A stretch of 64,000 nucleotides of DNA. Origin: Actinomycetota bacterium (GTDB lineage Bacteria > Actinomycetota > Acidimicrobiia > Acidimicrobiales > JAMCPL01). Every line of letters begins with the position of its first letter. The first letter of the stretch is position 1. The notes under the pieces were generated by a model that was given only the letters and a program-made list of their open reading frames with translations, ran no database searches and was not told the DNA's origin. This document shows positions 1-63,994 of this stretch, in pieces. The stretch is from positions 30,720 through 94,719 of the forward strand of contig JAMCPL010000008.1 of the NCBI GenBank assembly GCA_023379675.1, given 5' to 3'. The translations under genes were made by a program, and so were the position numbers.

Positions 1-1
1 C

Positions 2-298
2 TCGCAGGAAGCCATGGAGGAGATTGCGCTCGATATTGCGGAGGGAGCCGATATTGTCATGGTCAAGCCTGCCCTGTCGTATCTTGACATAATCTCACGA
101 ATATCTTCCACCGTGAATGTTCCGGTTGCCGGCTACCATGTAAGCGGCGAATACTCAATGGTAAAAGCTGCCGGGGAACGAGGATGGCTGGATGCCGGAG
201 CTGTGATGATGGAACATCTCGTGTCCATAAAGCGAGCCGGCGCCCGATTTATAATCAGCTATGCAGCCGCCGAGATTGCAGAAATGATCGGACGGTGA
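2..298 (+). CDS. hemB: porphobilinogen synthase (delta-aminolevulinate dehydratase), 3' fragment; the gene starts upstream of the window
   Basis: The frame is open from the window edge. The translation ...[17 protein letters not shown]...[14 protein letters not shown]...[12 protein letters not shown] matches the conserved HemB C-terminus. hemL follows directly, as in haem operons. Confidence 0.85.
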
Positions 299-406: not shown

Positions 407-1786
407 ATGAACGATCTCAACGATGAGTGGTTCGCGAGAGCCCAGCGAGTGATTCCGGGGGGTGTGGACTCACCAGTACGATCCTTCAGCTCCGTGGGAG
501 GCACCCCCGTAACGGTGGACCACGGCAAGGGAGCATACCTATACGATGTGAATGGCCACCGGTATGTGGACATGATCCAGTCGTATGGTGCAGTAATCCT
601 CGGCCATGCCGATCCCGGTATCACTAGTGCGCTTTACGACGCAATTAGCAAGGGTACGACATTCGGCACCCCCACCAGAGGCGAGGTGCTGCTTGCAGAG
701 GAGATATGCGCAAGAGTACCCGGTTGCGAGCAGGTGCGGTTTGTATCGTCAGGCACTGAGGCTGCAATGAGCGCCATACGTCTGGCAAGGGGAGCCACCG
801 GGAGGGACCGGGTGATCAAGTTCGCAGGTTGCTACCATGGTCACTCGGACGGATTGCTGGCAAAAAGCGGCAGTGGCGTTGCCGTCATGGGGTTGTCCGG
901 GTCGGAGGCAGGGTCGGAGGCAGGGTCGGAGGCAGGGTCGGAGGCAGGGTCGGAGGCAGGGTCGGAGGCAGGGTACCTGCCAGGCTCACTGCCTGGATCT
1001 GCAGGTGTGCCTGTTGCAAGCGTAAGTGACACCATAATATGTCCATACAACCAGGTGCCTTCCCATGATGTGCTGGATGAAAAAGTGGCATGCGTAATAG
1101 TGGAACCAGTTGCGGCCAACATGGGTGTAGTGCTTCCCGCACCGGGTTTCCTGCAAGGTTTGCGTAACGCATGTGATGCCGCTGGTGCCCTGCTCATCTT
1201 CGACGAGGTAATCACCGGCTTCAGGGTGGCTTACAGCAACGCGTCAACCATGTGTGGCGTGATACCGGATATCTACTGCTTCGGCAAGGTCATCGGTGGT
1301 GGACTCCCCCTTGCGGCGTTTGGCGGAAAGGCCGGATTACTGAAGCAGCTTGCACCCGTTGGGCCCGTTTACCAGGCAGGTACACTCTCGGGTAACCCAC
1401 TTGCCACAGCTGCAGGTCTGAGTGTATTGAACCGCCTGGACGAGAATGCGTTTACTACGCTGGCGAGCAAGGTGGAGTCATTCGCCGCAGGACTTCAATC
1501 TGTACTGAGTGATGCAGGGCTGGAGGCTGCCGTCCAACGATACGGTACGCTATGCAGTGTGTTCTTCGGAACAAGCAACACAGTATCTGACTATGATACT
1601 GCCTCAGCTTCAGCCGCCACCGGCATATACAGCAAGTTCTTCCACCATATGCTGGACCGCGGAGTGATGCTCCCGCCTGGTCCGTACGAAGCACTGTTCG
1701 TTGGATTGGCGCACAGCGACGCAGACTTGGACTACGTACTGGAGCAGGCAAGGACTGCTGCGTCAGAGACCGCAATGCGTATTTGA
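407..1786 (+). CDS. hemL: glutamate-1-semialdehyde 2,1-aminomutase
   Basis: FARAQRVIPGGVDSPVRSF, DEVITGFR and FGKVIGGGLP are class-III aminotransferase / HemL hallmarks. I moved the start to ATG 407 (MNDLNDEWF); the ORF-track start is 353. The gene carries an in-frame (GSEA)6 tract. Confidence 0.93.
   Translation: MNDLNDEWFARAQRVIPGGVDSPVRSFSSVGGTPVTVDHGKGAYLYDVNGHRYVDMIQSYGAVILGHADPGITSALYDAISKGTTFGTPTRGEVLLAEEICARVPGCEQVRFVSSGTEAAMSAIRLARGATGRDRVIKFAGCYHGHSDGLLAKSGSGVAVMGLSGSEAGSEAGSEAGSEAGSEAGSEAGYLPGSLPGSAGVPVASVSDTIICPYNQVPSHDVLDEKVACVIVEPVAANMGVVLPAPGFLQGLRNACDAAGALLIFDEVITGFRVAYSNASTMCGVIPDIYCFGKVIGGGLPLAAFGGKAGLLKQLAPVGPVYQAGTLSGNPLATAAGLSVLNRLDENAFTTLASKVESFAAGLQSVLSDAGLEAAVQRYGTLCSVFFGTSNTVSDYDTASASAATGIYSKFFHHMLDRGVMLPPGPYEALFVGLAHSDADLDYVLEQARTAASETAMRI
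899..970 (+). repeat. perfect 12-bp tandem repeat (GGGTCGGAGGCA) x6 inside hemL, encoding (GSEA)6
   Basis: Counted directly: six identical 12-mers from 899 to 970, in frame. Confidence 0.98.
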
Positions 1787-1814: not shown

Positions 1815-2888
1815 TCAGTAGGGCAGGCAGACCGGCCGCCAGAGTGTGGACATTTTATCCATATCTACTGCACGTACCCTACCCTCCTGAGTAAGCTTGC
1901 GGAGATGCGCCCATAACGAATAGCGCGCCATAGAGTGTAGGGACTCCGGAACATCTCTATATACTGTCATGATCATATCATCTATAGATATACCCTGTCC
2001 GTGACCATCGTTGATACTCTTGCTACCACTGCCGGACACAACCTGTAACCCTCGGTTTGGATGATGCTGCTGGTCGCCGTTGGTGCTCTTGTCCTGATCA
2101 CCGCTCTCGCCAGGATGACGACTTAGCCTCCCATCTTGGTCTCCATCTTGATCCATACTAAGGCGAGTCACCTGAGGTGTCCTGCTCAGGCGACAGAGCG
2201 CTTCCCATACGGCCTCCTCGCGCATCCGGCGATGCTCGATGACGGAGGAGACCATCCTGGCCGGATCGTCCATGCACATACCGTGGCCTGGCAACAGCGC
2301 CCTGACCGGAGGCGTAATCTCCAGCAACAGCCGTAGGCTGTCCATGTATCTGGCCATGTCGCCATCCAGAGGGGCTATAACCACCGTGGAACCCTGCATT
2401 AGATGATCTCCGGTAAAAAGCAGGTCCTCTCCCAACAACATGTAGCACAGATGGTCCGACGAGTGACCCGGCGTGTAAATAGCCCGCAACCCAGCTCCCT
2501 GCACGCTCAGTATGTCCCCGTTCGTCAGCAGCCTGTCAGGTTCGAACCCGGGACTCCGGGTAAATCCGGCTGTCTCTGCGCCGGTAATACGCGCCAATAG
2601 AGCTGCAGCAGGTGCATGATCAAGGTGCTTGTGAGTGACGGCGATCTTGCTTATCCGACCTTCACCTATATCCGCCAGCAAATGCACATGCTCGGCCAAC
2701 TCCGGACCAGGATCCACAACCACCAGCTCATCGCTGCCTATGATATAGCTGTTGGTCCCTGGCCCGGTCATGGCTCCTGGGTTGGGAGCAACCACCCTGG
2801 TCACTCCGGGAAAGAGCTTCGCGGGTTCTCCAGGTATACAAGCTTGATAAGGATCGAAATGCTCGGAATGCACTACGGAAAGCATCAC
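1815..2888 (-). CDS. MBL-fold metallo-hydrolase with a low-complexity insert near the C-terminus
   Basis: HxHxDH motif (VTHKHLDHAPAA) and downstream TPGHSSDH. There is a roughly 60-aa D/Q/G/S-rich insert (MDQDGDQDG...GDQDKSTNGDQQHH) at about 1977-2162. Confidence 0.8.
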   Translation of the reverse strand: MMLSVVHSEHFDPYQACIPGEPAKLFPGVTRVVAPNPGAMTGPGTNSYIIGSDELVVVDPGPELAEHVHLLADIGEGRISKIAVTHKHLDHAPAAALLARITGAETAGFTRSPGFEPDRLLTNGDILSVQGAGLRAIYTPGHSSDHLCYMLLGEDLLFTGDHLMQGSTVVIAPLDGDMARYMDSLRLLLEITPPVRALLPGHGMCMDDPARMVSSVIEHRRMREEAVWEALCRLSRTPQVTRLSMDQDGDQDGRLSRHPGESGDQDKSTNGDQQHHPNRGLQVVSGSGSKSINDGHGQGISIDDMIMTVYRDVPESLHSMARYSLWAHLRKLTQEGRVRAVDMDKMSTLWRPVCLPY

Positions 2889-5107: not shown

Positions 5108-5118
5108 CCCTGCGCGCC

Positions 5119-5943
5119 TCATTGCGAGCAGACAGGCCATCGCCAGGAACCTGCTGGCAAGGACACACGCCCGTGCTCCGTGCGCCATTTGGAATAGCTT
5201 TTCGCCCACTCTTCGTGCCACTTGACCTCCGAGGCATGCAACTCATCTATAGACAGGCGTCCAAGGTCGGGGTACTGTTCAGCCTGCGCCATCGCTACGG
5301 CCACCGCAGCGCCGGCATCTCCAGCCGCATCGTGAGCAGAGGGGAGATCGACCCCGTAGTGGCTGCACAGCATCTGAAGAGTGCGCTTACCCTTGCGGAA
5401 CCGGTCAAAGTGCCGGTCTATGACCAGAACATCGACTACCCGCAAGTCCGGCAACATCACACCCGTACCAAACCACTGGCGTGAAACGGCATCAATCATG
5501 GTCAGATCGTAACTGAGATTCATACCCGCAACGACAGCACCGGTAGCTGAGGCAAACCCAAGCGCAGCAATGATATGAGAGATGCCGGACTCGAGCGTCA
5601 CGCCTTCAGAAGCCGCCCGCGCCGTGGTAATCCCATGTATAGCCACTGCCTGGGATGGTATGGGCCTACCGGGGTCAATCAAAAAATGATCTACATTCAC
5701 CGTCCTGCCTCCCTGGACATAAACCAATGCCGCCGAAACAGGAACGTCATCGAAAGGATCGACACCAGTAGTCTCCAGATCGAATCCGAGCAGGCGCCCC
5801 CTTGCCCACGAATCCAGCTGGGAATCCGCAGGATGAGGCTCCTGGCTGGTCCATTCGAATGGTTTCACCCTGACATCCTCCCTAGGGCTAAAGCCCGGGG
5901 ATTGCGCTTGCACTTTGGGGACGGTACTCGACTTCACGGGCAC
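5119..5943 (-). CDS. DEDDh 3'-5' exonuclease (DnaQ/epsilon-like)
   Basis: Exo I motif GFDLETTG, an Exo II-like region, and Exo III HDAAGDA. Confidence 0.75.
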   Translation of the reverse strand: MPVKSSTVPKVQAQSPGFSPREDVRVKPFEWTSQEPHPADSQLDSWARGRLLGFDLETTGVDPFDDVPVSAALVYVQGGRTVNVDHFLIDPGRPIPSQAVAIHGITTARAASEGVTLESGISHIIAALGFASATGAVVAGMNLSYDLTMIDAVSRQWFGTGVMLPDLRVVDVLVIDRHFDRFRKGKRTLQMLCSHYGVDLPSAHDAAGDAGAAVAVAMAQAEQYPDLGRLSIDELHASEVKWHEEWAKSYSKWRTEHGRVSLPAGSWRWPVCSQ

Positions 5944-6441
5944 CTACTCACGCCGACCAATTCGTGTATTTGCCCGTCTCAGATACCGGTGCGAACAATC
6001 CCACAACCACCGGGCCATCAGGTGTCTGGTGTCTTTCGCTGGATTGCGCACACAATCGACAACATGCAAGCACCTGTCCTGCACCATCACGGCAAGTGTA
6101 GCCGCCTTTCCCGAGCTGTGGGCCGTTTAGCACCAGACAACCCAGCCACAGGCCACGCTCCGCTCATTACTGGATATATGCCTCATTATTGGAAGATACT
6201 AACATGCACCTGTAACGCTTACCTGGTATGCCGTATACGCGCAATGCATATACAGGACGGCGGACTTGCCATACAGCCGAGGTAAGCGTTTGGAACGGCA
6301 GATCCGGGGTACATCCAGCGCCGTCAAAGTCATCGATATCACCCAAGATGACACGCGCATACATGCTAAGCGCTGGCTAGACGCATCATATGCCGACATA
6401 CCGTTACCTCGATCCACCTTCACGGGAATGCCGCTATCTGA

Positions 6442-6936
6442 TCACCCCGCCTTATCCAGGTACACCATCCATTCAGGCTCAGGAGTAAAGCGCATCAGCC
6501 ATGCCTCCCGGCCAAGAGGACGGTACGGTACCCTGTGCAGGACCCAGCCCATCTCTTTTACGGTCTTGGCGCCTTTCTTGCCATTGCATCTGGTACAGGC
6601 CGCCACGACATTCTCCCAGGAATGACTACCGCCATTGCACCGCGGTATCACATGGTCGGTGGTGGTGGCCGGCTTTCCGCAGTAGGCACAGACATGATGA
6701 TCTCGAGCCAGAACGTTACGAGTGGTCAATGCCACTGAACGGCCGTACGGCACGACTACGTAACGCATCAGGCGTATGACGGACGGCACGACTACGCTGA
6801 CGCTTGGACTATTGAAGACTGCAGTCGATTCACAAACCGTTTCAGCCTTACCACCAAACAGCAGCGATAGGGCTCTTTGGGGTGATACGACGCTCAGTGG
6901 CTCGTAGCTGGCATTCAACAACAGTACTCGGCTCAT
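6442..6936 (-). CDS. HNH endonuclease
   Basis: CAYCGKPATTTDHVIPRCNGGSHSWENVVAACTRCNGKKG is a canonical HNH/zinc-finger core. Confidence 0.85.
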   Translation of the reverse strand: MSRVLLLNASYEPLSVVSPQRALSLLFGGKAETVCESTAVFNSPSVSVVVPSVIRLMRYVVVPYGRSVALTTRNVLARDHHVCAYCGKPATTTDHVIPRCNGGSHSWENVVAACTRCNGKKGAKTVKEMGWVLHRVPYRPLGREAWLMRFTPEPEWMVYLDKAG

Positions 6937-16905: not shown

Positions 16906-17784
16906 CTACCTTGCCACCCACCCACCGTCCACCAGCAGGTCCGTGCCAGTGATAAACGATGCTGATTCCCCGGCAAGGAAGCAGACAGCCTGTGCTATCT
17001 CGTCCGGTTCAGCCCAGCGACCCAGAGCCTGCTCGCTTTCCCTTTCAGCTTTCACCTCATCAAAGGGTAGACCCATCCGCTCTGCCTCCATGGAGATGTC
17101 TCCGCGCAGCATGGCTGTGTCCACTGAGCCAGGGCTTACTGAATTGACCCTGATCCTGTATGGCGCCAGCTCCCAGGCGAGCGCCCTTACCATGGAGATT
17201 ATTGCCCCCTTGGTCGAGCCGTAGAGCGCATGGTCTCGCTGCCCGACATGGCCGGAGACGGACGCCATGCATACTATCGATCCGCCCATTACCTGGATCA
17301 TTATCGGGATCGTGTACTTGCACATCAAGAAAGTGCCTCCCAGGTTGGTGTCTACGACCTTGCGATATTCCTCCCAGGACGTATCCTGGAATGGCTTGAC
17401 GAGCACCACTCCCGCCACGTTGGCCAGTACGTCTATGCGACCGTAATCGGATCCTATACTGGCGAGCACTTTTGAAACTGCATCTTCGTCAGATACATCG
17501 CACTGGTAATACCGCGACACAATAGGTATGTCTGCCGGCTTGGGCGAGGGCGCTGGCGAGGGCGCTGGCGAGGGCGCGGAGGTAGGTGAGGATGAGTACA
17601 TGAGCATGCCTGCAGGCGTGCCGACATCATGCTCATGCCACCCGGCGAGCGCCGCATCTTCTTCCGGGACAATGTCTATCGCTGCGACTGCATATCCGAG
17701 CATGTCCAGGCGTATTGCGGTTGCGCGGCCAATTCCATGAGCCGCTCCGGTCACGACTGCGACCTTTCTGGTCCGCTCATTCAC
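16906..17784 (-). CDS. SDR-family oxidoreductase with a P/S/A-rich insert
   Basis: TGAAHGIGRA Rossmann motif and YGSTK catalytic motif. The insert SSSPTSAPSPAPSPAPSPKP is encoded partly by the 12-bp x3 repeat at 17543-17578. Confidence 0.88.
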   Translation of the reverse strand: MNERTRKVAVVTGAAHGIGRATAIRLDMLGYAVAAIDIVPEEDAALAGWHEHDVGTPAGMLMYSSSPTSAPSPAPSPAPSPKPADIPIVSRYYQCDVSDEDAVSKVLASIGSDYGRIDVLANVAGVVLVKPFQDTSWEEYRKVVDTNLGGTFLMCKYTIPIMIQVMGGSIVCMASVSGHVGQRDHALYGSTKGAIISMVRALAWELAPYRIRVNSVSPGSVDTAMLRGDISMEAERMGLPFDEVKAERESEQALGRWAEPDEIAQAVCFLAGESASFITGTDLLVDGGWVAR

Positions 17785-22148: not shown

Positions 22149-22463
22149 CTAAACAGCGTTTGCGGGCAATCCTAAGTAATTCTTGACGATTTTCATATCA
22201 CCTTTGAGTTCGCCCACGTCTTTGACCAGCTGGTCGATCCTTGCAGTCTGCTGGTCGATCCTTGCAGTCTGCTGGTCGATCCTTGCAGTCTGCTGGTCGA
22301 TCCTTGCAGTCTGCTGGTCGATCCTTGCAGTGAGGTCAGATGCCATCTTGATCATTTCAGAACGTAAAGCATTGCCTTGCTGGACAACAAGGACCACCAA
22401 TACTCCGAACATCCCCAACAAAGGTCCGAGAATGGTCCAAAGCTGCCCAGTGGTCATGAACAT
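22149..22463 (-). CDS. small membrane-anchored coiled-coil protein with (TARIDQQ)n repeats; function unknown
   Basis: N-terminal TM helix (LWTILGPLLGMFGVLVVLVV), then about 5 heptad repeats encoded by a perfect 21-bp tandem repeat. Paralogous to 36013-36408. Confidence 0.6.
   Translation of the reverse strand: MFMTTGQLWTILGPLLGMFGVLVVLVVQQGNALRSEMIKMASDLTARIDQQTARIDQQTARIDQQTARIDQQTARIDQLVKDVGELKGDMKIVKNYLGLPANAV
22230..22330. repeat. perfect 21-bp tandem repeat (CTGGTCGATCCTTGCAGTCTG) x4.8
   Basis: Counted directly. In frame within the 104-aa ORF. Confidence 0.97.
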
Positions 22464-27200: not shown

Positions 27201-27703
27201 TCCCGAGCTGCCGCTGAAGGCCCTGCATCCAACAGTGCACTGCACAGGGGTCCCTTACTGCAACCGGTAAGAACCATCCAATGACTGGTGTCCATACCAG
27301 CGATGTCATAATCATGCAGCAGGAAGCTGCCTTTGGCGCCTCCTGCCAGATTGGCATGCGATAGTGTTCTCGAGAGCAATGAGTAACCCTCCATATCTTT
27401 TGCCAGTACGACCAGATGCCTGCTTGCAGGGTGCCCCCTATTATTCTCGTACTTCTCCTGGATACTGTGCGGTGCAGTCCACGTAACCTTAATCTCTGAT
27501 CCGAAGATGGATGGCAACCCATGAGATCGAGCCGCTTCGCTGAAACTGGCTACTCCATAAAGGCCATTATGGTCAGTGAGAGCCAGCCCGGCAAGTCCAA
27601 GCCGATCGGCCTCTTCCACTAGCTCCTCTGGGCTGGATGCGCCATCCAGAAAGCTGAAATACGAATGGCAGTGCAATTCGGCATAGCGCCGTATATCAGT
27701 CAT
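24254..27703 (-). CDS. dnaE2: error-prone DNA polymerase III alpha-like subunit DnaE2 (ImuC)
   Basis: PHP domain start YAELHCHSYFSFLDGAS. 1149 aa. The gene sits last in an imuA'-imuB-dnaE2 arrangement, with an 8-nt overlap with imuB. Confidence 0.9.
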   Translation of the reverse strand: MTDIRRYAELHCHSYFSFLDGASSPEELVEEADRLGLAGLALTDHNGLYGVASFSEAARSHGLPSIFGSEIKVTWTAPHSIQEKYENNRGHPASRHLVVLAKDMEGYSLLSRTLSHANLAGGAKGSFLLHDYDIAGMDTSHWMVLTGCSKGPLCSALLDAGPSAAARELDKLIGMCGRDNVAIEIWNHGTPLDTARNDALAAIAIKKNVQLVATNIVHYARASSYRLASILAAVREGHTLEEAQRYISPNATASLRSAAEQYRRFARWPGAVERAACIAGECTLELHPLAPQIPSFAVPRGHSQQSWLAHLVEAGAAYRYGGRNVSSAGRAWKQIDHEMEVILSLGYAGYFLVVWDIVKFCRENGIYCQGRGSAANSAVCYSLGITQADPVSLGLLFERFLSPAREEPPDIDVDIEPQRRDEVIEYVYNRYGIEHVAQVSSVITYRYRSALRDLGKALGGPLVANSRTSSSRGMPASSNGDRLPVSGHDLSVPGNVDCHADLMSEMIGVPRHLGLHPGGIVVCNRPISEVCPVEHARRPGRTVLQWDKDGCAAMGLIKIDLLGLGILQAIHMAVDLIHDTYGVDLDIGALPQDEKVYDMLCKADTVGVFQVESRAQMATLPRMQPRSFYDLVVEIALIRPGPIQGGTVHPYLRRRQGKESTQAPHPLAERSLARTLGVPLFQEQLMTMVMDVAGFTATEADALRQAMGSKRSSERMVKLRERIFAGMAANGIDREQAEEMYGKLAAFANFGFPESHAVSFAYMVYVSAWIKLHYPAAFYAALLGAQPMGFWSPQSIVLDAQRHGVEVLGPHVCHSSELASLGPCRESREKDSRQARPELGSKQADVQLGIRAGTQPGGRQSCLQAGSRVDCQVGPEAGKRTVNLAVRLGLAGIRSLGVETARRIASMRPYRSMEGLVERAELSATHMELLAGAGALDGLAVSNRRYEQDKNTPYASGESCNPGMSGMSGVPEEATRRRATAWSAGLVARASVRNAVAGSLGRQARIANVEMDCDAPNLPPMTLLEVTNAEVYASGLTTGPTAISLARSTLDSVGIVLASTLAKAGCMDGRIKVAGTVTHRQRPPTAGGTVFMNLEDETGMVNVVFSPGAWVRWQHVALSTDALIVQGHVEHAEGVTSLIAEKVMPLDPQ

Positions 27704-29234
27704 AGGTGGCCTCCATATACCAATAGCCCCCTTCCTCCAGGAGCAAATACCCGATCCCGGATACCGTCACCACCTGTATGCGCGCTTGACGCAACGCACT
27801 ATAAGCGTTCTGGGTGCGCGTACTCTGTATGCCCTGCATACCATACTTACCCTGCGAGCGATGCCCTGCACTCTTGGCTGCATGGTTGCCTGTGCTATGG
27901 GTCGAGCAAGCGCCTGTGCTATGACATCGGTGAGATCCGTATGCATTCCGCTCCCACCACCGACCCTCGAAAACCCATGGTCCTGCCCATGACGATATCC
28001 AGACCTGTGCGTTACGTCCGATTACGAGTAGATATGGCTCTCCGCTTACCTCGCCATTTGAATACACTCGCACCCTTTCCCCTTTCCGGTCACGTACTGC
28101 AACTGGTGTGGGGTTCCTGTACAAGACAACGGGAGATGGACCAGGAAGATACCCTGACCATACCTCAGGCATATCCATGGAAGATGGTGGGCCGGCATTT
28201 GCTGCGCAATCCAGCCAGACCTCGGGTTTGCCAATGAAGCCTATGCCAGACCTGCCTTGCCCATTGACATACCCAGCCGGTGGCGCTACATGCGAGGTGT
28301 CCAACTGAAGATTTTTTTTGCCGGCATCTACGGCGTTCTCTGTTTTGCCTAAACTGATTTGGCCTGGCTCGTGCCAGCCCGGCACATGACTGGACATCTC
28401 TTTCGGGGTCCACGCAATCTGTTCTGCACGTTCAGCAGGATAACGACCTCCATGCAGCTTCCCCATGCTGACTGATCCGTATCCCATTGATCGATATACA
28501 TCGTATATGGCTATACAGGCTTGCCCATCCTGCTGGCTGGGTGGCTCGCTCCAGCGGTTGGGTATTCCATGCCGTTTGCTGGCAACTCCATCCGGTCGAC
28601 TGGCGATTCCAGGATCATGCTCTTTTGCACTAAACGGCTCTTTGCCATCCTGCAGGCATACGGCCAACCACTTCATGATGGAGTCGTATATAGTAGGCGT
28701 AAGCTTACCTTGTTTGCCAGTGGCTATTTGTCGGCAATAAAGTATATTCCTCCCGAAACGATTCAGCACGTCTTTTTCGGGAAGCCTGGCCAGATCTCCA
28801 AAGGTGTCTATCCCTAGAATATCTGGATGCAGTGCACATCCTGTCAGAATATGCACTGGCAATGGCGCCAGGAAGTCAGGGGTCTCTCCTTGCGGTACCA
28901 CAATGGTACCGTTGCCTACTGCCATGCAGGCAGCCAGAAGAGCAGCAACCATACCATCTGCCACGCCTGCGGTGGTTCCCACCCCATTATCCCTGGTTGC
29001 ATCTTCAACAGCTTGCTTGGCAGCCGCTGCGAATGACTCTTCCCCGCCAAAATAGCGTGGCTCTCGCCATATCGTTGAACTATATATTCCTATATTGACT
29101 TCTCGGAAAGAGGGGCCAACTGCAGCTAGAGCATTGCATACCTGCATGGGTGCAAGAGACCGGTAATCGAGATCACCGGCGTACAGCAACGCAGGGGTGA
29201 TTATCACCAAGGTACGTTCCATGCCAATTTCCAT
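27696..29234 (-). CDS. imuB: ImuB-like Y-family polymerase homolog (mutasome adaptor)
   Basis: RYFGGEESFAAAAKQ...GVADGMVAALLAA...FLAPLPVHIL...FGDLARLPEKDVLNRFG fits the ImuB pattern. The position between imuA' and dnaE2 agrees. Confidence 0.75.
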   Translation of the reverse strand: MEIGMERTLVIITPALLYAGDLDYRSLAPMQVCNALAAVGPSFREVNIGIYSSTIWREPRYFGGEESFAAAAKQAVEDATRDNGVGTTAGVADGMVAALLAACMAVGNGTIVVPQGETPDFLAPLPVHILTGCALHPDILGIDTFGDLARLPEKDVLNRFGRNILYCRQIATGKQGKLTPTIYDSIMKWLAVCLQDGKEPFSAKEHDPGIASRPDGVASKRHGIPNRWSEPPSQQDGQACIAIYDVYRSMGYGSVSMGKLHGGRYPAERAEQIAWTPKEMSSHVPGWHEPGQISLGKTENAVDAGKKNLQLDTSHVAPPAGYVNGQGRSGIGFIGKPEVWLDCAANAGPPSSMDMPEVWSGYLPGPSPVVLYRNPTPVAVRDRKGERVRVYSNGEVSGEPYLLVIGRNAQVWISSWAGPWVFEGRWWERNAYGSHRCHSTGACSTHSTGNHAAKSAGHRSQGKYGMQGIQSTRTQNAYSALRQARIQVVTVSGIGYLLLEEGGYWYMEATYD

Positions 29235-29316: not shown

Positions 29317-29372
29317 GGTAGGTAGGTAGGTAGGTAGGTAGGTAGGTAGGTAGGTAGGTAGGTAGGTAGGTA
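29317..29372. repeat. (GGTA)14 tetranucleotide microsatellite in the imuA'-imuB intergenic region
   Basis: Counted directly: 14 perfect units, 56 bp. Confidence 0.98.
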
Positions 29373-29468
29373 GGATGGCCGTTACTCAAGTCCCATGATG
29401 AAGCCCCTTGCGAATACCCGGCCAGTCCTGCTCCAGTAGGAATCGCCGCCGCACCTCCGCTGCCCCGA

Positions 29469-30221
29469 TCACCCTGCCGTAGCCACCTTGCCGTCTGACC
29501 CTGGAAGGTACAGTGTTCGCCTTGCCGGGTGTGCTGCGGCACCCCTACCGGTCGACTCGACCAGAGCTACGCGACTATGCAAACGGCCGAATCCTCCAGA
29601 TGGCCCCAACCACTTCGAGGAGACCACTTCCATGATTACGCTTGCACCTATGCTCCGAGCGGCCTGCCCCTGTAGGGACGTGCCCATGCCTGAAACCAGT
29701 ACAATACATATAGAATTGTATTTTCTGGCAATTGCAGCCAAGCGCTGTATGGTATGTATGTATCGCTGCAGGTAGGTATCCTGCAGGCTCAGATTCAACA
29801 GTACTATGTCGATTCCCTTCAGTAGGGTGGCTATAGCCTGCCAGAACTCTGCCGAAGGAAATGGCGATGCAGGCGCCGGCGGAGAGGTTGGTGGAGATAC
29901 CATCACCATACGATTTAGATCGACACCAAGCTCGCAGGTGGCCAGTAACCCCAGGTCGGTGAGTCCGGCAACCGCGCACCACGCGCCTTGGCTCGAAGCA
30001 GCCGCCAGCAGTGAAATAGCCAGGGTACAGGCACCATTGCCAACAATACTGCTCAGTACTTCTATGAGGGTACCTTTCTGCATGCCTCCGTATGGGAAGA
30101 ACGGGGCCAGCGCATCTATCACCGGCAGCACTGAATGATTGTCGTAACAAGAGCCTTTAATGAAGAAAGGGCTCGGTACTGAACCGCCGGCTATTCCTGT
30201 ACTATTTACATTAGCGAACAT
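29469..30221 (-). CDS. imuA': ImuA'-like RecA-fold/SulA-like mutasome protein
   Basis: GACTLAISLLAAASSQGAWCAVAGLTDLGLLATCELGVDLNRMVMV resembles ImuA'. It is the first gene of the cassette. The ORF track extends to 30314, but an SOS box lies inside that extension, so I place the start at ATG 30221. Confidence 0.6.
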   Translation of the reverse strand: MFANVNSTGIAGGSVPSPFFIKGSCYDNHSVLPVIDALAPFFPYGGMQKGTLIEVLSSIVGNGACTLAISLLAAASSQGAWCAVAGLTDLGLLATCELGVDLNRMVMVSPPTSPPAPASPFPSAEFWQAIATLLKGIDIVLLNLSLQDTYLQRYIHTIQRLAAIARKYNSICIVLVSGMGTSLQGQAARSIGASVIMEVVSSKWLGPSGGFGRLHSRVALVESTGRGAAAHPARRTLYLPGSDGKVATAG

Positions 30222-30227
30222 CTGTTC
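30215..30227. promoter_or_regulatory. LexA (SOS) box CGAACATCTGTTC upstream of / at the start of imuA'
   Basis: Palindromic CGAAC-N4-GTTC. On the gene strand it is immediately preceded by TATTATAT (-10-like). The same motif class occurs at recA. Confidence 0.7.
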
Positions 30228-30382
30228 TATATAATAGCATGACTGCACCCCTTGTGGCCTTTTTGTATCTTGGTCACTTTGGTATATCTTGTACATGGCG
30301 TAGCGGTAGGCCACAGAACGGGGAGGAGCCGGTAGGGTGGTGGCTGGCGATCTGGCCGTACCTGTAACGTACTGATTGCCCT

Positions 30383-36012: not shown

Positions 36013-36408
36013 TCAGGCCGTCACTTGATGCGTATAAGGATCGTGCATATGACCCCGCAACTCGCTTCTTAGCTCTGCGAAATCAGTTCGAAGCTGCCCA
36101 ACATCTACAGTAAGTCGGTAGATCCGCTCGGTCTGTGCGTCTATCCTGGCAGTCTGGCCGATTATCTCTTCCTTCAATTCTACACGCAGGCTGTCTATCC
36201 GCTCGGTCTGTGCGTCTATCCTGGCAGTCTGGCCGATTATCTCTTCCTTCAATTCTACACGCAGGCTGTCTATCCGCTCGGTCTGTGCGTCTATCCTGGC
36301 AGCAAGCCTATCCATTTTTTGCCAAGTCATAGTCAACAAAGCAACCATAAACGCCCCAAGTATCCCAATTGTTGTCCAACTTGCTGTCGTTGTCGCGAAA
36401 AGCCTCAC
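36013..36408 (-). CDS. small membrane-anchored coiled-coil protein with 25-aa repeats (ARIDAQTERIDSLRVELKEEIIGQT); function unknown
   Basis: N-terminal TM helix (WTTIGILGAFMVALLTM), then 2.4 copies of a 25-aa repeat from a perfect 75-bp tandem repeat. It shares the ARID(A/Q)QT motif and overall architecture with 22149-22463. Confidence 0.6.
   Translation of the reverse strand: MRLFATTTASWTTIGILGAFMVALLTMTWQKMDRLAARIDAQTERIDSLRVELKEEIIGQTARIDAQTERIDSLRVELKEEIIGQTARIDAQTERIYRLTVDVGQLRTDFAELRSELRGHMHDPYTHQVTA
36124..36302. repeat. perfect 75-bp tandem repeat x2.4
   Basis: Unit starts at 36124, 36199 and 36274. The copies are identical as far as I can read. Confidence 0.95.
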
Positions 36409-41215: not shown

Positions 41216-43345
41216 TTGAGCAGTACCACCAGTACCATGGACTCCGGCACCGGAGGAGCGCAGTCATCGTCGCCGAAGGGACGATTCCGATTCATCATTG
41301 ACAGGTCGATGGACATATACCCGGATACCGCCCCCAGATATACCTATCTGGGGATCACCGTGGCAATCACCATAGTGCTCTACTACCTGTACTTCGTGGA
41401 GGGGGCCGTCACTCCTCTCATGCTGCCCTACTATCACATGTCCTTCCTCTACTTCATGACGCTGGTGGTGATCGGCAATGCCGCCGCCGCTGTAACTGCC
41501 CTTGTCGGCGGTCTGTCGGACAAGATAGGCAGGGTGAACCTTACGATCTATGGAGTGCTGGCAGTGGCGTTGCTGCAGCTTCTCGCCATACCGAACATCC
41601 ACTCGGAACTGGGCTTCGGTATCGCTTACACCGCAATAGGCTTTGCTGAAGGGATCGTACTGGTTTCCACCCCGGCGCTGATAAGAGATTTCTCTCCGCA
41701 GATGGGCCGGGCATCGGCCATGGGATTCTGGACTCTCGGTCCGGTAATAGGAAGCCTGGCGGCCACCTTGGTTGCCGAGCATACGCTTGCCCATCTACAT
41801 CCCTGGCAGGATCAGTTCATCATCTCTGGCATTGTGGCGCTGGTGATCTTTATCGTAGCTTTCGTCGGCCTTCGCGAGCTGTCGCCGGGACTGCGTGACC
41901 AGCTGATGGTATCGGAAAAGGAAAGAGCGCTCGTCCAGGCGCGAGCCAAGGGCATTGACATAGAGAAATCCCTGAAAAGTCCGCTGCGCACCATGTTCAA
42001 GTGGGACCTAATCGTTTCCGCTTTCGGCATCTCTACATTCCTACTCATCTATTATGCGGCCGTCACGGTGTTCACCCTCTATTTTGTCGTAGTCTTCGGC
42101 CAGAGCACCGCCAATGCCAATGGCATAGACACCTGGTACTGGGCATTCGATGCAATAGCCCTCGTTGTCATGGGCATCCTCTCGGACAAGTTGCGAGTAC
42201 GCAAGCCATTCATGCTGGTGGGAGCAATCGGCATGATTGTGGCCACGTATATTTTCTTGAGCAAGGTCCATTCTCCGGCTACCGGGTACTACACGCTGGT
42301 ATGGATCGTTGTATTCATCGGCATATTCGACGCAATGGCCTACGCTCCGTGGATGGCCGCTTATACCGAAGCGGTGGAGGAAAAGAATCCTGCCCTCTCA
42401 GCGACCGGACTTGCTGTATGGGGATGGGTGCTGCGAATAGTCATTGCCGCCTCCTTCCTGGTGATGCCAAGAGTCATTTCCACCGCATCGACACTTGTCG
42501 ACAACCAGACCTCCGCCACAACGCTTCAAACCCTGAAGTCGGCCTCGCCGTATGTCACCAACCACAAGCCTGCTCCTCCTGATGTGCTCGCAGCACTGAA
42601 GGCGACGGGCGAGCCTTACGGTAAGGCACTTGCGGCCTACCTTGCAACTCCGGAAAGCGTAAATACCGTCAGCACCCTTCAGGCACTCGAGGTCGCAGCA
42701 CCGTACGCAACGGCCAAGAAACCGGCCCCTGCAACGGTGGTTACTGATCTGAAGGCGACACACGAGCCCTACAGCCTAGCACTGGCTGATTACATCTCCA
42801 GCGGGTACAACTTCGCCGCCGTACCCCATCCCCTATTCAACCAGTTGCTTGGCCTGATCAATTTCAGCCCTGCCGCGGCCAGTGTCCAGGCCGGAAAGCC
42901 GGTATCTGCGGCAACGGTGGCCAGTATCAAGAAGTACTCGCCGCAACTCGCCGTCCTGCTCAACAATGAGAAGAGAATAGCCGTAGCTCAACCAGGTGTT
43001 TTCAACCAGCTACAGGGACTGAACTACTTCAGTCCTGCCGCGGCTGGTGTCCAGGCCGGAAAGCCGGTATCTGCGGCAACGGTGGCCAGTATCAAGAAGT
43101 ACTCACCGCAACTCGCCGTACTGCTTAGCGTCGAGAAAAAGGTGATCCCTGCCCAGAAGCACTCCCCCAACCAGTGGGAAGTGTGGTGGTGGGTATGCCT
43201 GGGAGGGCAAGTGCTCTTTCTCATCCTGCTCTTTACCATCAAGGGCAGGTGGAGCCCGAAAGCTGCCAGGAGGGACTTCGAAGAGTACCAGAAAACCATC
43301 GACAAGGAACTGGCCGCTCTGGCGTCCAGTCACACTACGAGCTGA
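41216..43345 (+). CDS. MFS-type transporter fused to a ~250-aa internally repeated (A-A-B-B) domain and an extra C-terminal TM helix
   Basis: About 12 TM segments in the first ~420 aa. Two ~45-aa repeats follow (LQTLKSASPY.../LQALEVAAPY...), then two ~55-aa repeats (FNQL.GL..FSPAAA.VQAGKPVSAATVASIKKYSPQLAVLL), then the TM helix WWWVCLGGQVLFLILLF. The start is uncertain: TTG 41216 or ATG 41237. Confidence 0.75.
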   Translation: MSSTTSTMDSGTGGAQSSSPKGRFRFIIDRSMDIYPDTAPRYTYLGITVAITIVLYYLYFVEGAVTPLMLPYYHMSFLYFMTLVVIGNAAAAVTALVGGLSDKIGRVNLTIYGVLAVALLQLLAIPNIHSELGFGIAYTAIGFAEGIVLVSTPALIRDFSPQMGRASAMGFWTLGPVIGSLAATLVAEHTLAHLHPWQDQFIISGIVALVIFIVAFVGLRELSPGLRDQLMVSEKERALVQARAKGIDIEKSLKSPLRTMFKWDLIVSAFGISTFLLIYYAAVTVFTLYFVVVFGQSTANANGIDTWYWAFDAIALVVMGILSDKLRVRKPFMLVGAIGMIVATYIFLSKVHSPATGYYTLVWIVVFIGIFDAMAYAPWMAAYTEAVEEKNPALSATGLAVWGWVLRIVIAASFLVMPRVISTASTLVDNQTSATTLQTLKSASPYVTNHKPAPPDVLAALKATGEPYGKALAAYLATPESVNTVSTLQALEVAAPYATAKKPAPATVVTDLKATHEPYSLALADYISSGYNFAAVPHPLFNQLLGLINFSPAAASVQAGKPVSAATVASIKKYSPQLAVLLNNEKRIAVAQPGVFNQLQGLNYFSPAAAGVQAGKPVSAATVASIKKYSPQLAVLLSVEKKVIPAQKHSPNQWEVWWWVCLGGQVLFLILLFTIKGRWSPKAARRDFEEYQKTIDKELAALASSHTTS
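42869..43126 (+). repeat. internal direct duplication: 93 bp at 42869-42961 versus 43034-43126 (about 5 mismatches, including a ~56-bp identical run), period 165 bp
   Basis: Aligned by eye. In frame (55 codons). Confidence 0.9.
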
Positions 43346-51103: not shown

Positions 51104-51179
51104 TGGCTGGCGGGGAAGGGCTCGAACCTTCAACCTCTGGGTCCAAAGCCCAGCGTTCTGCCAATTGAACTACCCGCCA
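51104..51179 (-). tRNA. tRNA-Gln (anticodon UUG), 76 nt with encoded CCA
   Basis: Folded by hand: 7-bp acceptor stem with U1:A72, D stem GUUC/GAAC, anticodon stem CUGGG/CCCAG with loop CUUUGGA, T arm GAAGG-UUCGAGC-CCUUC, discriminator G73, CCA. Confidence 0.95.
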
Positions 51180-61581: not shown

Positions 61582-62049
61582 TCATGCGTCTCCTGTCCCC
61601 GACTGGTTATCGTGCCTGCTGGTAAGACCCTCACGCCAAGTCAAGTAACCTGCCTGCAGTAGGACATATCCAAATCCCACTGCCCATATGCCGCCAAAAA
61701 TCCCCCATAACGTAAGCAGCCCATGTCGTGACAAAGCTCCAGCTATCACCAGCACGACCCCGCCAACCAGGAGCAACAAACCAGACATGATCTGTATGCA
61801 TGTATAAGATCTTCGTGGCGCTTTTTGAACCGGTGGCACGCCCGAACCTGGATAGCGAGGCCCCGAGCCCTTGCCCAAGTCACTACCGCCGGCACGAGAA
61901 GGCCAGCGCTGCATTTGCCAAGGCAATGTGCCCGTAAACTGAGGCGGACCCCATTTAGCCTTTCCGGACATATCTTGAATATTCACAGAAGGCAGGCCAC
62001 CCGTATTCATTCCACCGCCTCGAGCCACTTCGCTATTCATGGCTCCCAT
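61582..62049 (-). CDS. hypothetical membrane protein (G/P-rich N-terminus, two C-terminal TM helices)
   Basis: ORF with plausible TM hairpin LLLLVGGVVLVIAGAL / LWGIFGGIWAVGFGYVLL. I recognise no family. Confidence 0.45.
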   Translation of the reverse strand: MGAMNSEVARGGGMNTGGLPSVNIQDMSGKAKWGPPQFTGTLPWQMQRWPSRAGGSDLGKGSGPRYPGSGVPPVQKAPRRSYTCIQIMSGLLLLVGGVVLVIAGALSRHGLLTLWGIFGGIWAVGFGYVLLQAGYLTWREGLTSRHDNQSGTGDA

Positions 62050-62169
62050 TATCCAGGCGTGAGGTGAACAGCAGGTAAACGCTGCAGGACGCTTGAATGA
62101 ACACTCGGTGAATACGCGCGAAGCCTGCCGATGCGGCTGTCTTTGAACCTACTCGCTATGCAGAACCCT

Positions 62170-62208
62170 GCCGGATGCACAATCATGCCGGATGCACAAT
62201 CATGCCGG
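62170..62208. repeat. 17-bp tandem repeat (GCCGGATGCACAATCAT) x2.3 in the intergenic region
   Basis: Read directly. Confidence 0.9.
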
Positions 62209-62311: not shown

Positions 62312-63994
62312 TTAGCTAAAGGCAAACGGAGCGGGAATCCGCAATATGACATTACGATCATATCTACCGCCACGTCCCGGCGGTTCTCCTGCAGGATCGT
62401 CACGATGCCACGAGTTCAAGGCAAGCTCCCTGGACCACCCCGCAAGCACCAGCGGATCGTCCAGATCCTCCGTCCGAGGATCCGTCATGCCTGCATGATC
62501 GAACACCGTGGAGTAGATGACCAGTTCGCCTGAACCTCTATCTATGGCAAGCTCGATAACCCGTCCCTGTTGCGGCCAATCGATCAGGGATGCGGTAGTG
62601 ATCTGCCAGATCCGGCACCCTGGATATTCCGGCGCCGCCTTCCAAGCACTGCGGGTTTTCCCGTTGCCATAGTCCGGCCCGGCACTGCTGAGCAAGGTTA
62701 TCTTATGGCGATGGGTATGGCCGTTCACCCACAGGATGACATTGGGAAAACGCCCGAGCAGCCCATCCAGATCACCGGCAAGTATCCTGCTGGAAGCTAA
62801 TGGAGAGTAACTATTCACGAGCGTCTCCAGCGGATGGTGACTGAACATAACAAACAGACGGTCCTCACGGCCACTAGTTGCCCATCTTCCATCTCCATCC
62901 AGCCAACGACTGTGCCCGTTCAACAGCTCTCCTTCGATCCAGGAAAGCTGTTCGGCATCGAGTGATCCCTGCCACCCACCCGACGGGTTCACTGTATCGA
63001 GCACAAGACACCGGACCGGGCCTGCATCAAAACTATAGTAGGAATGCCCTTTTTCAGGCGCTGGTGGCTGTATCATGCCGTTCGATACCCCGCCGGAATG
63101 GCCGTCGCCATGGCCGGCACTTTTGTAACCAGCATTTTCATGGCCATGGCCGGAATCCTGGCCGTAGCTTTCACCATCAATTGCAGTAATGCCATGCCGA
63201 AGTGCAACAAGCCACTGCTTCTGATCAACGAGCCGGCGATCCGGATCGGCAGTAACCTGTTCCCAGGGACCGCCGGACAACGCAGCTACGATATCAGGAG
63301 GTACGACACTGTGATTGGCGAGCAGGCTTCCCATGTCAGCCCCCTCCACCCATCCAGTGGCTTTCCTGTCACCCACCGCCACCCTTCTTAATATGCCAGT
63401 GTGCGGTATGGTCCCTGCAATCATGTAATCATGATTCCCTGGCACGTCATACCAGGGAATACCGAGTCCCGTAGAAGTAAACTCCCTGCGGCACGAATCA
63501 AGCAGTCCTGGCACATCCGGATACCCGAAGCGTTCATGGGCAATGTCCGAACCAGCTGAGGGTGACCCATGGCCGGCAAGCGGACCATCAGGATGCCAGT
63601 AGTACCAATCGTAGAAAGCCGTACTGCCTACTCCTTCGTAACTACTGCGATCACCCGAATCAGGTCTAATCGTCTTTCCCCCGTTCATCAGGTCGAGATA
63701 CCACTTGATCTCGTTGTACTGGGAGTTATCGGCTGCGTCACCCGTAATCATCGCAAAAGAAACAGGGCATCCAGTTACCGGCCCGTAATGCAAATTACGT
63801 ACCGCCACGGCCGTTGCCTCCACCACTTGCATGCTCAGCATGTCCTGAGGCCGGTAAGTACCGATATTGCCTAGTACAGGAAAAAACGCCGAATCAATGT
63901 TGCCGAGCCTGTCAAGGAACTCCGCCCTTGCAGGACTCTGTGCATCGGTAACGTGCAGATCAGTCAGGTGTACAAACGCCAGTAACGGCTCCAC
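62312..63994 (-). CDS. metallophosphoesterase (calcineurin-like; actinobacterial TIGR03767-like family); the N-terminus may extend beyond the window
   Basis: FVHLTDLHVTD (motif I), ITGDAADN (motif II), PGNHD (motif III), VMFSHHP, NGHTHRH. There is a G/H/S-rich insert (GQDSGHGHENAGYKSAGHGDGHSGG). Confidence 0.8.
   Translation of the reverse strand: MEPLLAFVHLTDLHVTDAQSPARAEFLDRLGNIDSAFFPVLGNIGTYRPQDMLSMQVVEATAVAVRNLHYGPVTGCPVSFAMITGDAADNSQYNEIKWYLDLMNGGKTIRPDSGDRSSYEGVGSTAFYDWYYWHPDGPLAGHGSPSAGSDIAHERFGYPDVPGLLDSCRREFTSTGLGIPWYDVPGNHDYMIAGTIPHTGILRRVAVGDRKATGWVEGADMGSLLANHSVVPPDIVAALSGGPWEQVTADPDRRLVDQKQWLVALRHGITAIDGESYGQDSGHGHENAGYKSAGHGDGHSGGVSNGMIQPPAPEKGHSYYSFDAGPVRCLVLDTVNPSGGWQGSLDAEQLSWIEGELLNGHSRWLDGDGRWATSGREDRLFVMFSHHPLETLVNSYSPLASSRILAGDLDGLLGRFPNVILWVNGHTHRHKITLLSSAGPDYGNGKTRSAWKAAPEYPGCRIWQITTASLIDWPQQGRVIELAIDRGSGELVIYSTVFDHAGMTDPRTEDLDDPLVLAGWSRELALNSWHRDDPAGEPPGRGGRYDRNVILRIPAPFAFS

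Follow-up and report, generated by a model that had tools for sequence, protein, structure and literature searches.

The window analysed here is a 64-kb stretch of DNA (64,000 nucleotides of contig JAMCPL010000008.1, assembly GCA_023379675.1) from an uncultured actinobacterium, the closest named relatives of which are metagenome-assembled genomes of Acidimicrobiales/Actinomycetota. Near its beginning lies hemL (407-1786, plus strand, stop codon at 1784-1786), which encodes a glutamate-1-semialdehyde 2,1-aminomutase (GSAM) of 459 aa and carries a perfect tandem repeat, translated as (GSEA)6, within an insertion in the mobile loop that gates the active site. The gene probably starts at the ATG at position 407, which matches the MNDLNDEW of the homologues. 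Its product is matched over the full length by the NCBIfam profile for HemL, NF000818 (538.9 bits; cutoff 398), and its best matches in the PDB are all GSAMs (E = 1e-122 to 1e-104). The same holds for the fold: the AlphaFold model (predicted template modelling score, pTM, 0.83) retrieves GSAMs as its top 28 Foldseek matches in the PDB, with target-normalised template modelling (TM) scores of 0.88-0.93, in line with a fold-type I / class III aminotransferase.

The array was found by Tandem Repeats Finder at 899-974, with the unit GGGTCGGAGGCA, a period of 12, 6.3 copies, 100% matches, 0 indels and a score of 152. In the raw letters, six full and identical GGGTCGGAGGCA units occupy 899-970 on the plus strand and are followed by the GGGT of a partial seventh unit, which extends to 974. 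The repeat is in frame with the hemL open reading frame (ORF), which reads ...LLAKSGSGVAVMGLS(GSEA)6GYLPGSLPGSAGVPVAS.... Six perfect copies of a 12-mer cannot have originated by chance, and replication slippage is the obvious mechanism by which such a repeat grows. Both the assignment of the gene to hemL and the presence of six identical 12-bp units encoding GSEA had been put forward in the initial annotation. The first is borne out by the profile, PDB and fold matches, and the second proved accurate to the base in the repeat search, the raw sequence and the translation of the ORF. At the 3' edge of the insert a diverged 12-bp duplication, CTGCCAGGCTCA / CTGCCTGGATCT, was read at 977-1000 (plus strand); it encodes LPGS-LPGS, of which the second copy is the LPGS of the canonical loop.

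Some properties of the array bear on how it may behave. The unit comprises 12 bp, i.e. four codons, so that a change in copy number inside the ORF is always in frame; the array has neither the frame-shifting unit nor the promoter position by which the on/off switching of phase-variable or contingency loci is recognised. On the coding strand the unit is G-rich (7 G / 12). When quadruplexes are allowed, the ViennaRNA minimum-energy fold places two-tetrad G-quadruplex elements in the array (-51.8 kcal/mol, against -47.6 kcal/mol without them); that these elements promote slippage is speculation. The ORFs that run across the repeat on the minus strand or in alternative frames, with PASD, GRRQ and PPTL repeats, were discarded as by-products of a repeat that lies inside a well-supported gene. 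An intein or a mobile element was likewise rejected as the origin of the insert, which consists of 32 aa of low complexity with no repeats or ORFs of its own of the kind that such elements carry.

The position of the insert follows from comparison with solved structures. All alignments with PDB entries are split in two, stopping at about residue 164 of the query and resuming at about 195, which leaves some 30-32 residues that have no counterpart in any of the matched solved GSAMs. From these gaps and from the homologues, the lineage-specific insert was delimited as S164-S194 (896-988, plus strand); its length is 32 aa by alignment, and the LS/LP and LPGS duplications at its edges make the register uncertain by 1-2 residues. 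It lies in the gating-loop region, residues 143-208 (833-1030, plus strand), which is the equivalent of residues 151-184 of the Arabidopsis enzyme AtGSA1 plus the insert, as judged from motif correspondence and from the low AlphaFold confidence (predicted local distance difference test, pLDDT, below 50 for 145-206).

In the 1.25 A structure of AtGSA1 the gating-loop region spans residues 151-184, the mobile part of which, K161-G170, shifts by as much as 8 A, with G163, S164 and G165 as the key residues for reorientation (PMC4909244). In closed GSAM a short helix (164-168) plugs the entrance (PMC3747428), and the lid restricts the escape of the diaminovalerate intermediate (PMC3747428, PMC6399207). 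The stretch K153-S-G155-S156-G157-V158-A159-V160-M161-G162 of the window protein corresponds to K161-A-G163-S164-G165-V166-A167-T168-L169-G170 of AtGSA1, and the 32-residue insert falls between the equivalents of AtGSA1 L171 and P172, three residues past the plug helix. An insert of about 30 aa had earlier been placed in the active-site lid; the PDB alignments and the motif mapping to AtGSA1 confirm this placement, in that the 32 aa lie inside the gating loop and not in a surface loop away from the lid.

The closest relatives of the window HemL form the protein cluster P0001/P0122 (MCL5947909.1, assigned to an 'Actinomycetota bacterium'), with 88-91% identity. The species that encodes them, here called the sister species, shares about 90% DNA identity and a conserved gene order with that of the window. 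All five members of the cluster carry an insert of 20 residues at the same point and with the same flanks (GLS-GSGSGSGS-VTEA-RYLPDS-LPGSAGVP). The exact protein P0122 was read on at least 24 sister-species contigs, and no length variation was found among the sister-species inserts, all proteins and contig reads being alike. In the DNA alignment the flanks are shared with the window, whereas the cores differ. The core of the window is GGGTCG-GAGGCA x6; that of the sister species is an imperfect hexamer tract, GGGTCG GGGTCC GGGTCC GGGTCG, i.e. (GGGTCS)x4 encoding (GS)4, followed by GTGACG GAGGCA (VTEA). The arrangement YLP(G/D)S-LPGS is common to both. The next relative, P0002 (80% identity), has a canonical loop that lacks the insert, as have P0003-P0005. 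Set against a conserved signature indel, which as a lineage marker has a fixed length and position between conserved residues within one clade, the insert has its position and flanks in common in the two known species and is absent from the next relative, but differs in length (32 aa in the window species, 20 aa in its sister).

A homologous insert at the same site in the sister species implies that the insertion is older than the expansion of the repeat and that the insertion is not an artefact of assembly. On the evidence of these alignments, the insertion was already present before the two sister species diverged, and each of them then grew its own repeat tract. The divergence of the two hemL genes (dS, synonymous substitutions per site, 0.31; dN, nonsynonymous substitutions per site, 0.044; dN/dS 0.14) allows a rough estimate of the age of the (GSEA)6 tract. 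Its six units hold about 20 synonymous sites, in which about 3 synonymous changes are expected in the window lineage since the split at dS = 0.31; none is seen (P about 0.05). This points to an expansion, or a latest homogenisation, that is much younger than the insertion. The recent slippage that had been proposed is thus a fair inference for the GSEA expansion, but does not apply to the insertion itself, of which the sister species has a homologous 20-aa version.

The window stems from a third-party metagenome assembly, and it could be argued that the repeat is real while the six copies, or the complete identity of the units, result from collapse or expansion during assembly. Exact look-ups of the GroEL and DUF929 proteins led to Logan assemblies of four runs (SRR10276728, SRR10278331, SRR10238610 and SRR10244963), which match the window at 100% identity over 2-5 kb and represent the same strain. 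One of their contigs, L095 (SRR10276728), begins inside the array, its position 1 being window position 945, and contains the last two units and an exact 3' junction, which gives an independent sighting of both the repeat and that junction. The contig shows that short-k assemblies fragment the hemL of this organism at the repeat, as expected of assemblers that cannot cross the array, and this fragmentation may hide the gene in catalogue searches.

The initial annotation had considered copy-number polymorphism probable; no second allele of the repeat was found in a metagenome scan, by exact look-ups or in the Logan assemblies. The metagenome DNA scan, made with two repeat units, gave four matches, all at unrelated loci and none in hemL, and exact look-ups of the 459-aa and 477-aa versions of HemL yielded no other full-length copy on record, hence no second full-length assembly of the allele. 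A protein search with a 141-aa loop segment returned short distant fragments only (at most 58% identity); the sister protein itself was not among them, which makes this search uninformative. A typical Illumina read exceeds the 76 bp of the array in length, as do the large k-mers of common metagenome assemblers, so that single reads can span it. Considering also that L095 reproduces the 3' junction exactly, that the reading frame is preserved and that the sister-species contigs carry a homologous insert at the same site, we regard an assembly artefact of this kind as rather unlikely.

Inserts of this size are rare at this site. In a survey of 271 sequences, 150 of which represented clusters formed at 50% identity out of 1.84 billion proteins, 208 sequences (about 77%) had the canonical spacing of 36 residues between two anchors, whereas the window protein has 32, the sister protein 20 and a third protein, P0006, 41 residues in addition. 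These loop lengths were counted by hmmalign, since regex counts are confounded by the GLP and GVP motifs. Smaller inserts occur at the same site in two distant proteins, P0177 (+11) and P0264 (+9). The canonical length was also found in 80 of 80 HemLs from diverse species genomes among the matches listed, a panel of proteins at most 58% identical to that of the window. In the nearest cluster representatives the segment is absent from 117 of 120, extra residues being confined to the sister cluster and P0006. The P0006 HemL (GCA_027321985.1, GCA_027414435.1) is 62% identical to the window protein and has an insert of about 41 aa at the same lid site. The sequence of this insert is unrelated and non-repetitive, of low complexity and rich in Pro, Ala and Ser, and the residues of the plug helix are altered as well (GSGAARSA). 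By these counts the length at this site is as a rule invariant; nevertheless, large inserts have been accepted here on at least two occasions.

A separate observation concerns the anchoring of the lid. HemL A140 (824-826) occupies the position of AtGSA1 Glu148, which hydrogen-bonds the open lid and contacts the substrate. P0001-P0005 share the Ala of the window protein (KFAGCYHGH), most of the relatives in the Acidimicrobiia have Asp, and P0006 and many other bacteria have Glu. This is a change in how the lid is anchored that characterises the clade and does not depend on the insert.

The gene itself has the features of a functional hemL. Its reading frame is intact, with no frameshift and no stop codon, and K294, D266, G155-S156-G157, Y322 and T326 are invariant in an alignment of 65 sequences that includes the window protein. 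K294 (codon at 1286-1288, plus strand) is the equivalent of AtGSA1 K274, the catalytic lysine that binds pyridoxal 5'-phosphate (PLP). The other residues act as the PLP-binding Asp, as the G-S-G motif of the lid and as the Tyr and Thr that are provided by the other subunit (PMC4909244). As the comparison with the sister gene indicates, hemL is under purifying selection.

The genomic context agrees with this function. Directly upstream of hemL lies the 3' end of hemB (1-298, plus strand; porphobilinogen synthase, ALAD), as concluded from an ORF that ends at 298 and from the PF00490 ALAD annotation on contig L094 and on the sister locus L081. Contig L094, which holds the window (window position 1 is L094 position 1908; listed as DAIDLQ010000001.1, 166,855 bp, in GCA_027449425.1), contains a cobA/hemD fusion, hemB and hemL in that order, and the sister locus L081 contains the full operon hemA-hemC-cobA/hemD-hemB-hemL. 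In the lineage of P0006, a hemA-hemC-hemD-hemB-hemL operon likewise ends with hemL, so that all three of them, the window species, its sister and the P0006 lineage, have the gene at the end of the hem operon.

Since the insert sits where a loss of gating should harm catalysis, one could suppose that this copy of hemL is decaying or has been refunctioned, and that a canonical hemL elsewhere in the genome supplies 5-aminolevulinate. A score slightly below the equivalog cutoff of TIGR00713 would agree with such a scenario. The low dN/dS, the absence of frameshifts and stop codons, the retention of all catalytic and lid-motif residues and the conserved operon position all speak against it, and no second hemL was found by tblastn within the 64-kb window. 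We consider decay or refunctioning most improbable. The initial annotation had called such an insertion surprising in an essential enzyme. This remains true as far as rarity is concerned, given the canonical length in 80 of 80 of the panel matches and 208 of the 271 surveyed sequences, but the surprise is tempered by the purifying selection, the operon context and the second, independent insert, which together suggest that the lid site tolerates extra length.

In the AlphaFold model of the window HemL, residues 145-206 are coil with a pLDDT below 50. The insert-free protein P0002, taken as a control, has a pLDDT below 50 for residues 145-174, so that the low confidence belongs to the lid in these monomer models. 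AlphaFold was therefore set aside as a test for a disruption of the lid by the insert. As modelled, the insert merely adds 32 residues with no predicted structure and changes nothing else, which fits a disordered excursion.

On the sequence evidence as a whole, we consider it quite probable that the locus holds a real in-frame minisatellite, recently expanded by slippage inside an insertion that is older, lineage-specific and of low complexity and that lies in the gating loop of a functional, operon-encoded HemL. The insert would then most likely be a stretch of low complexity that prolongs the C-terminal hinge of the lid and is tolerated in a working enzyme. It may have started as a small local duplication of the segment that encodes GLPGS; this origin is suggested by the 3' edge, which is a diverged copy of the adjoining LPGS codons, and by the GLSGS of the 5' edge, which resembles GLPGS. 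The duplicated segment would subsequently have drifted as low-complexity sequence, from which the (GS)4 tract of hexamers arose in the sister species and the (GSEA)6 tract of 12-mers in that of the window. In the protein, a disordered and solvent-exposed excursion would lengthen the C-terminal hinge of the lid, whereas the plug residues G155-S156-G157-V-A would stay in place. We expect that the enzyme still opens and closes and makes 5-aminolevulinate, and that its gating kinetics are changed modestly at most.

Several points weigh against this interpretation. The lid is functionally important and has its canonical length in 208 of the 271 sequences, so that a neutral addition of 32 aa would not be expected a priori. 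The AlphaFold models cannot show whether the lid still closes, and the exact copy number of six rests on one assembly. The search for a second hemL covered the 64-kb window only, a circumstance that also leaves room for a canonical copy elsewhere. Finally, the equivalog score for TIGR00713 is 518.7, just below the cutoff of 527.3, a shortfall that is plausibly due to the 32-aa insert.

Instead of being merely tolerated, the insert could be a selected module: a flexible tether of the lid that alters gating or negative cooperativity, or a contact for HemA (glutamyl-tRNA reductase) in the channelling of glutamate-1-semialdehyde, with a repeat number that tunes the flux to 5-aminolevulinate. In this respect it is noteworthy that two species as far apart as dS = 0.31 have both kept the insert in its place, that a second lineage has independently gained a large insert at the same point, and that the lid lies at the mouth of the active site, which would be the docking place of the proposed HemA-HemL channel (PMC6399207). 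The sequence of the insert, on the other hand, is not conserved between the two species beyond the flanks (20 versus 32 aa, with a (GS)4 versus a (GSEA)6 core), is of low complexity and predicted to be disordered, and is unrelated to that of the P0006 insert. In addition, the 80%-identical P0002 does without it. The overall pattern is typical of neutral low-complexity drift, and a role in tuning or in partner docking is disfavoured by the fact that the three inserts have no conserved sequence in common. A selected module is therefore, in our view, unlikely. A still bolder version, in which the GSAM lid of this lineage would be an evolvable, length-variable 'rheostat', appears very unlikely. 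In such a lid the repeat number would tune closure, retention of diaminovalerate, negative cooperativity between the subunits or docking of glutamyl-tRNA reductase, and hence the tetrapyrrole flux, and the property would have arisen independently in P0006.

The preferred reading, a tolerated extension of the lid, can be compared with what is known from related systems. The canonical GSAMs (Synechococcus 2GSA/2HOZ, Arabidopsis AtGSA1 5HDM, B. subtilis 3BS8) share with the window HemL the family, the fold and the catalytic residues, the lid motif K-x-G-S-G-V-A-x-x-G followed by LP-x-S-x-GVP, and the position in the haem pathway and operon. They lack the 32 residues; a canonical loop length is a conserved trait of the family and not a formal requirement for membership. 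The sister HemL agrees in insertion point, flanks (GLS-GS...EA-x-YLP-x-S-LPGSAGVP), operon and neighbouring genes, and differs in length (20 vs 32 aa) and in its imperfect hexamer core. The P0006 HemL shares the lid site, the terminal position in the operon and the low-complexity character of the insert, whereas its approximately 41 aa are unrelated and its plug helix is altered.

More generally, the coding variable-number tandem repeats (VNTRs) and low-complexity inserts of bacteria and protists, as well as conserved signature indels, are likewise generated by slippage, in frame and restricted to lineages, with conserved flanks. Coding VNTRs are more usual in surface proteins. Compared with these classes, the window insert is far larger, varies in length between sister species and lies in a catalytically relevant mobile lid. 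The only HemL indels found in the literature serve as taxonomic markers: Chlorobiales have an insertion of 1 aa and Thermoleophilia a deletion of 2 aa (PMC9318685, PMC6544083).

The region downstream of hemL is largely kept in the sister species, where the genes for a metallo-beta-lactamase-fold protein, an alpha/beta hydrolase, DUF929, HNH, GroES and GroEL are found as in the window. In the metallo-beta-lactamase-fold protein that adjoins hemL (1815-2888, minus strand), the Lactamase_B domain (43-202) and a winged-helix domain (301-342) are joined by a long linker of low complexity (…DQDGDQDGRLSRHPGESGDQDKSTNGDQQHHP…GSGSKSINDGHGQG…); an exact look-up of this 357-aa protein found no entry. A segment of about 1.3 kb (5115-6442), which encodes an RNase_T-family exonuclease (5119-5943, minus strand), is absent from the sister species; in L081 the HNH gene comes directly after DUF929. 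A tRNA gene (51107-51179, minus strand) is the sole Rfam match at the gathering threshold in the window.

Repeats are also present in other parts of the window. A short-chain dehydrogenase ORF (16906-17784, minus strand; adh_short_C2, 200 bits) contains a perfect 12-bp x2.9 repeat of the (APSP) type at 17543-17577, which encodes SAPSPAPSPAPSPKP and lies in an insert ahead of the part that matches the profile (best match residues 90-289). Two small proteins of 104 aa (22149-22463, minus strand) and 131 aa (36013-36408, minus strand) share an N-terminal hydrophobic segment, indicative of a membrane anchor, and ARID-Q-T coiled-coil repeats. The former contains a perfect repeat of 21 bp x4.9 (TARIDQQ x5) at 22229-22331 and the latter a perfect one of 75 bp x2.4 at 36122-36302; their Pfam matches are weak and sub-threshold (DUF7365, DivIC and similar). 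Since other perfect in-frame repeats occur in the window, the genome appears to be prone to slippage.

Outside this group, a major-facilitator transporter of 709 aa (41216-43345, plus strand), of which MFS_1 covers residues 53-398 only, has a 165-bp x1.9 repeat (80% identity) in its C-terminal extension at 42863-43174. Two further repeats fall between ORFs: a perfect (GGTA)14.5 microsatellite at 29317-29374, in the gap between the ORFs (of at least 150 aa) at 27696-29234 and 29469-30314 (both minus strand), and a 17-bp x3 tandem repeat (91% identity) at 62158-62208, in the gap between those at 61582-62049 and 62312-63994 (both minus strand). The (GGTA)14.5 tract could be a promoter-region repeat and as such a candidate for phase variation.

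The feature in hemL belongs to a known kind, that of in-frame low-complexity inserts in enzymes, and indicates no new kind of system or mechanism. The window adds a case of slippage-driven, in-frame repeat growth in the core enzymes of an uncultured actinobacterium, with the short-chain dehydrogenase as a second case. For the family its interest lies in the lid: the GSAM gating loop is a textbook case of a lid whose movement controls access to a PLP active site, and the asymmetric, negatively cooperative behaviour of the enzyme rests on it. Natural variants exist in which 20, 32 and about 41 residues have been added directly after the plug helix, and their genes look functional, which indicates that large disordered additions are tolerated by the C-terminal hinge of the lid. 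These variants would be ready-made constructs with which the effects of lid length on gating, on the retention of the intermediate and on HemA channelling may be studied.

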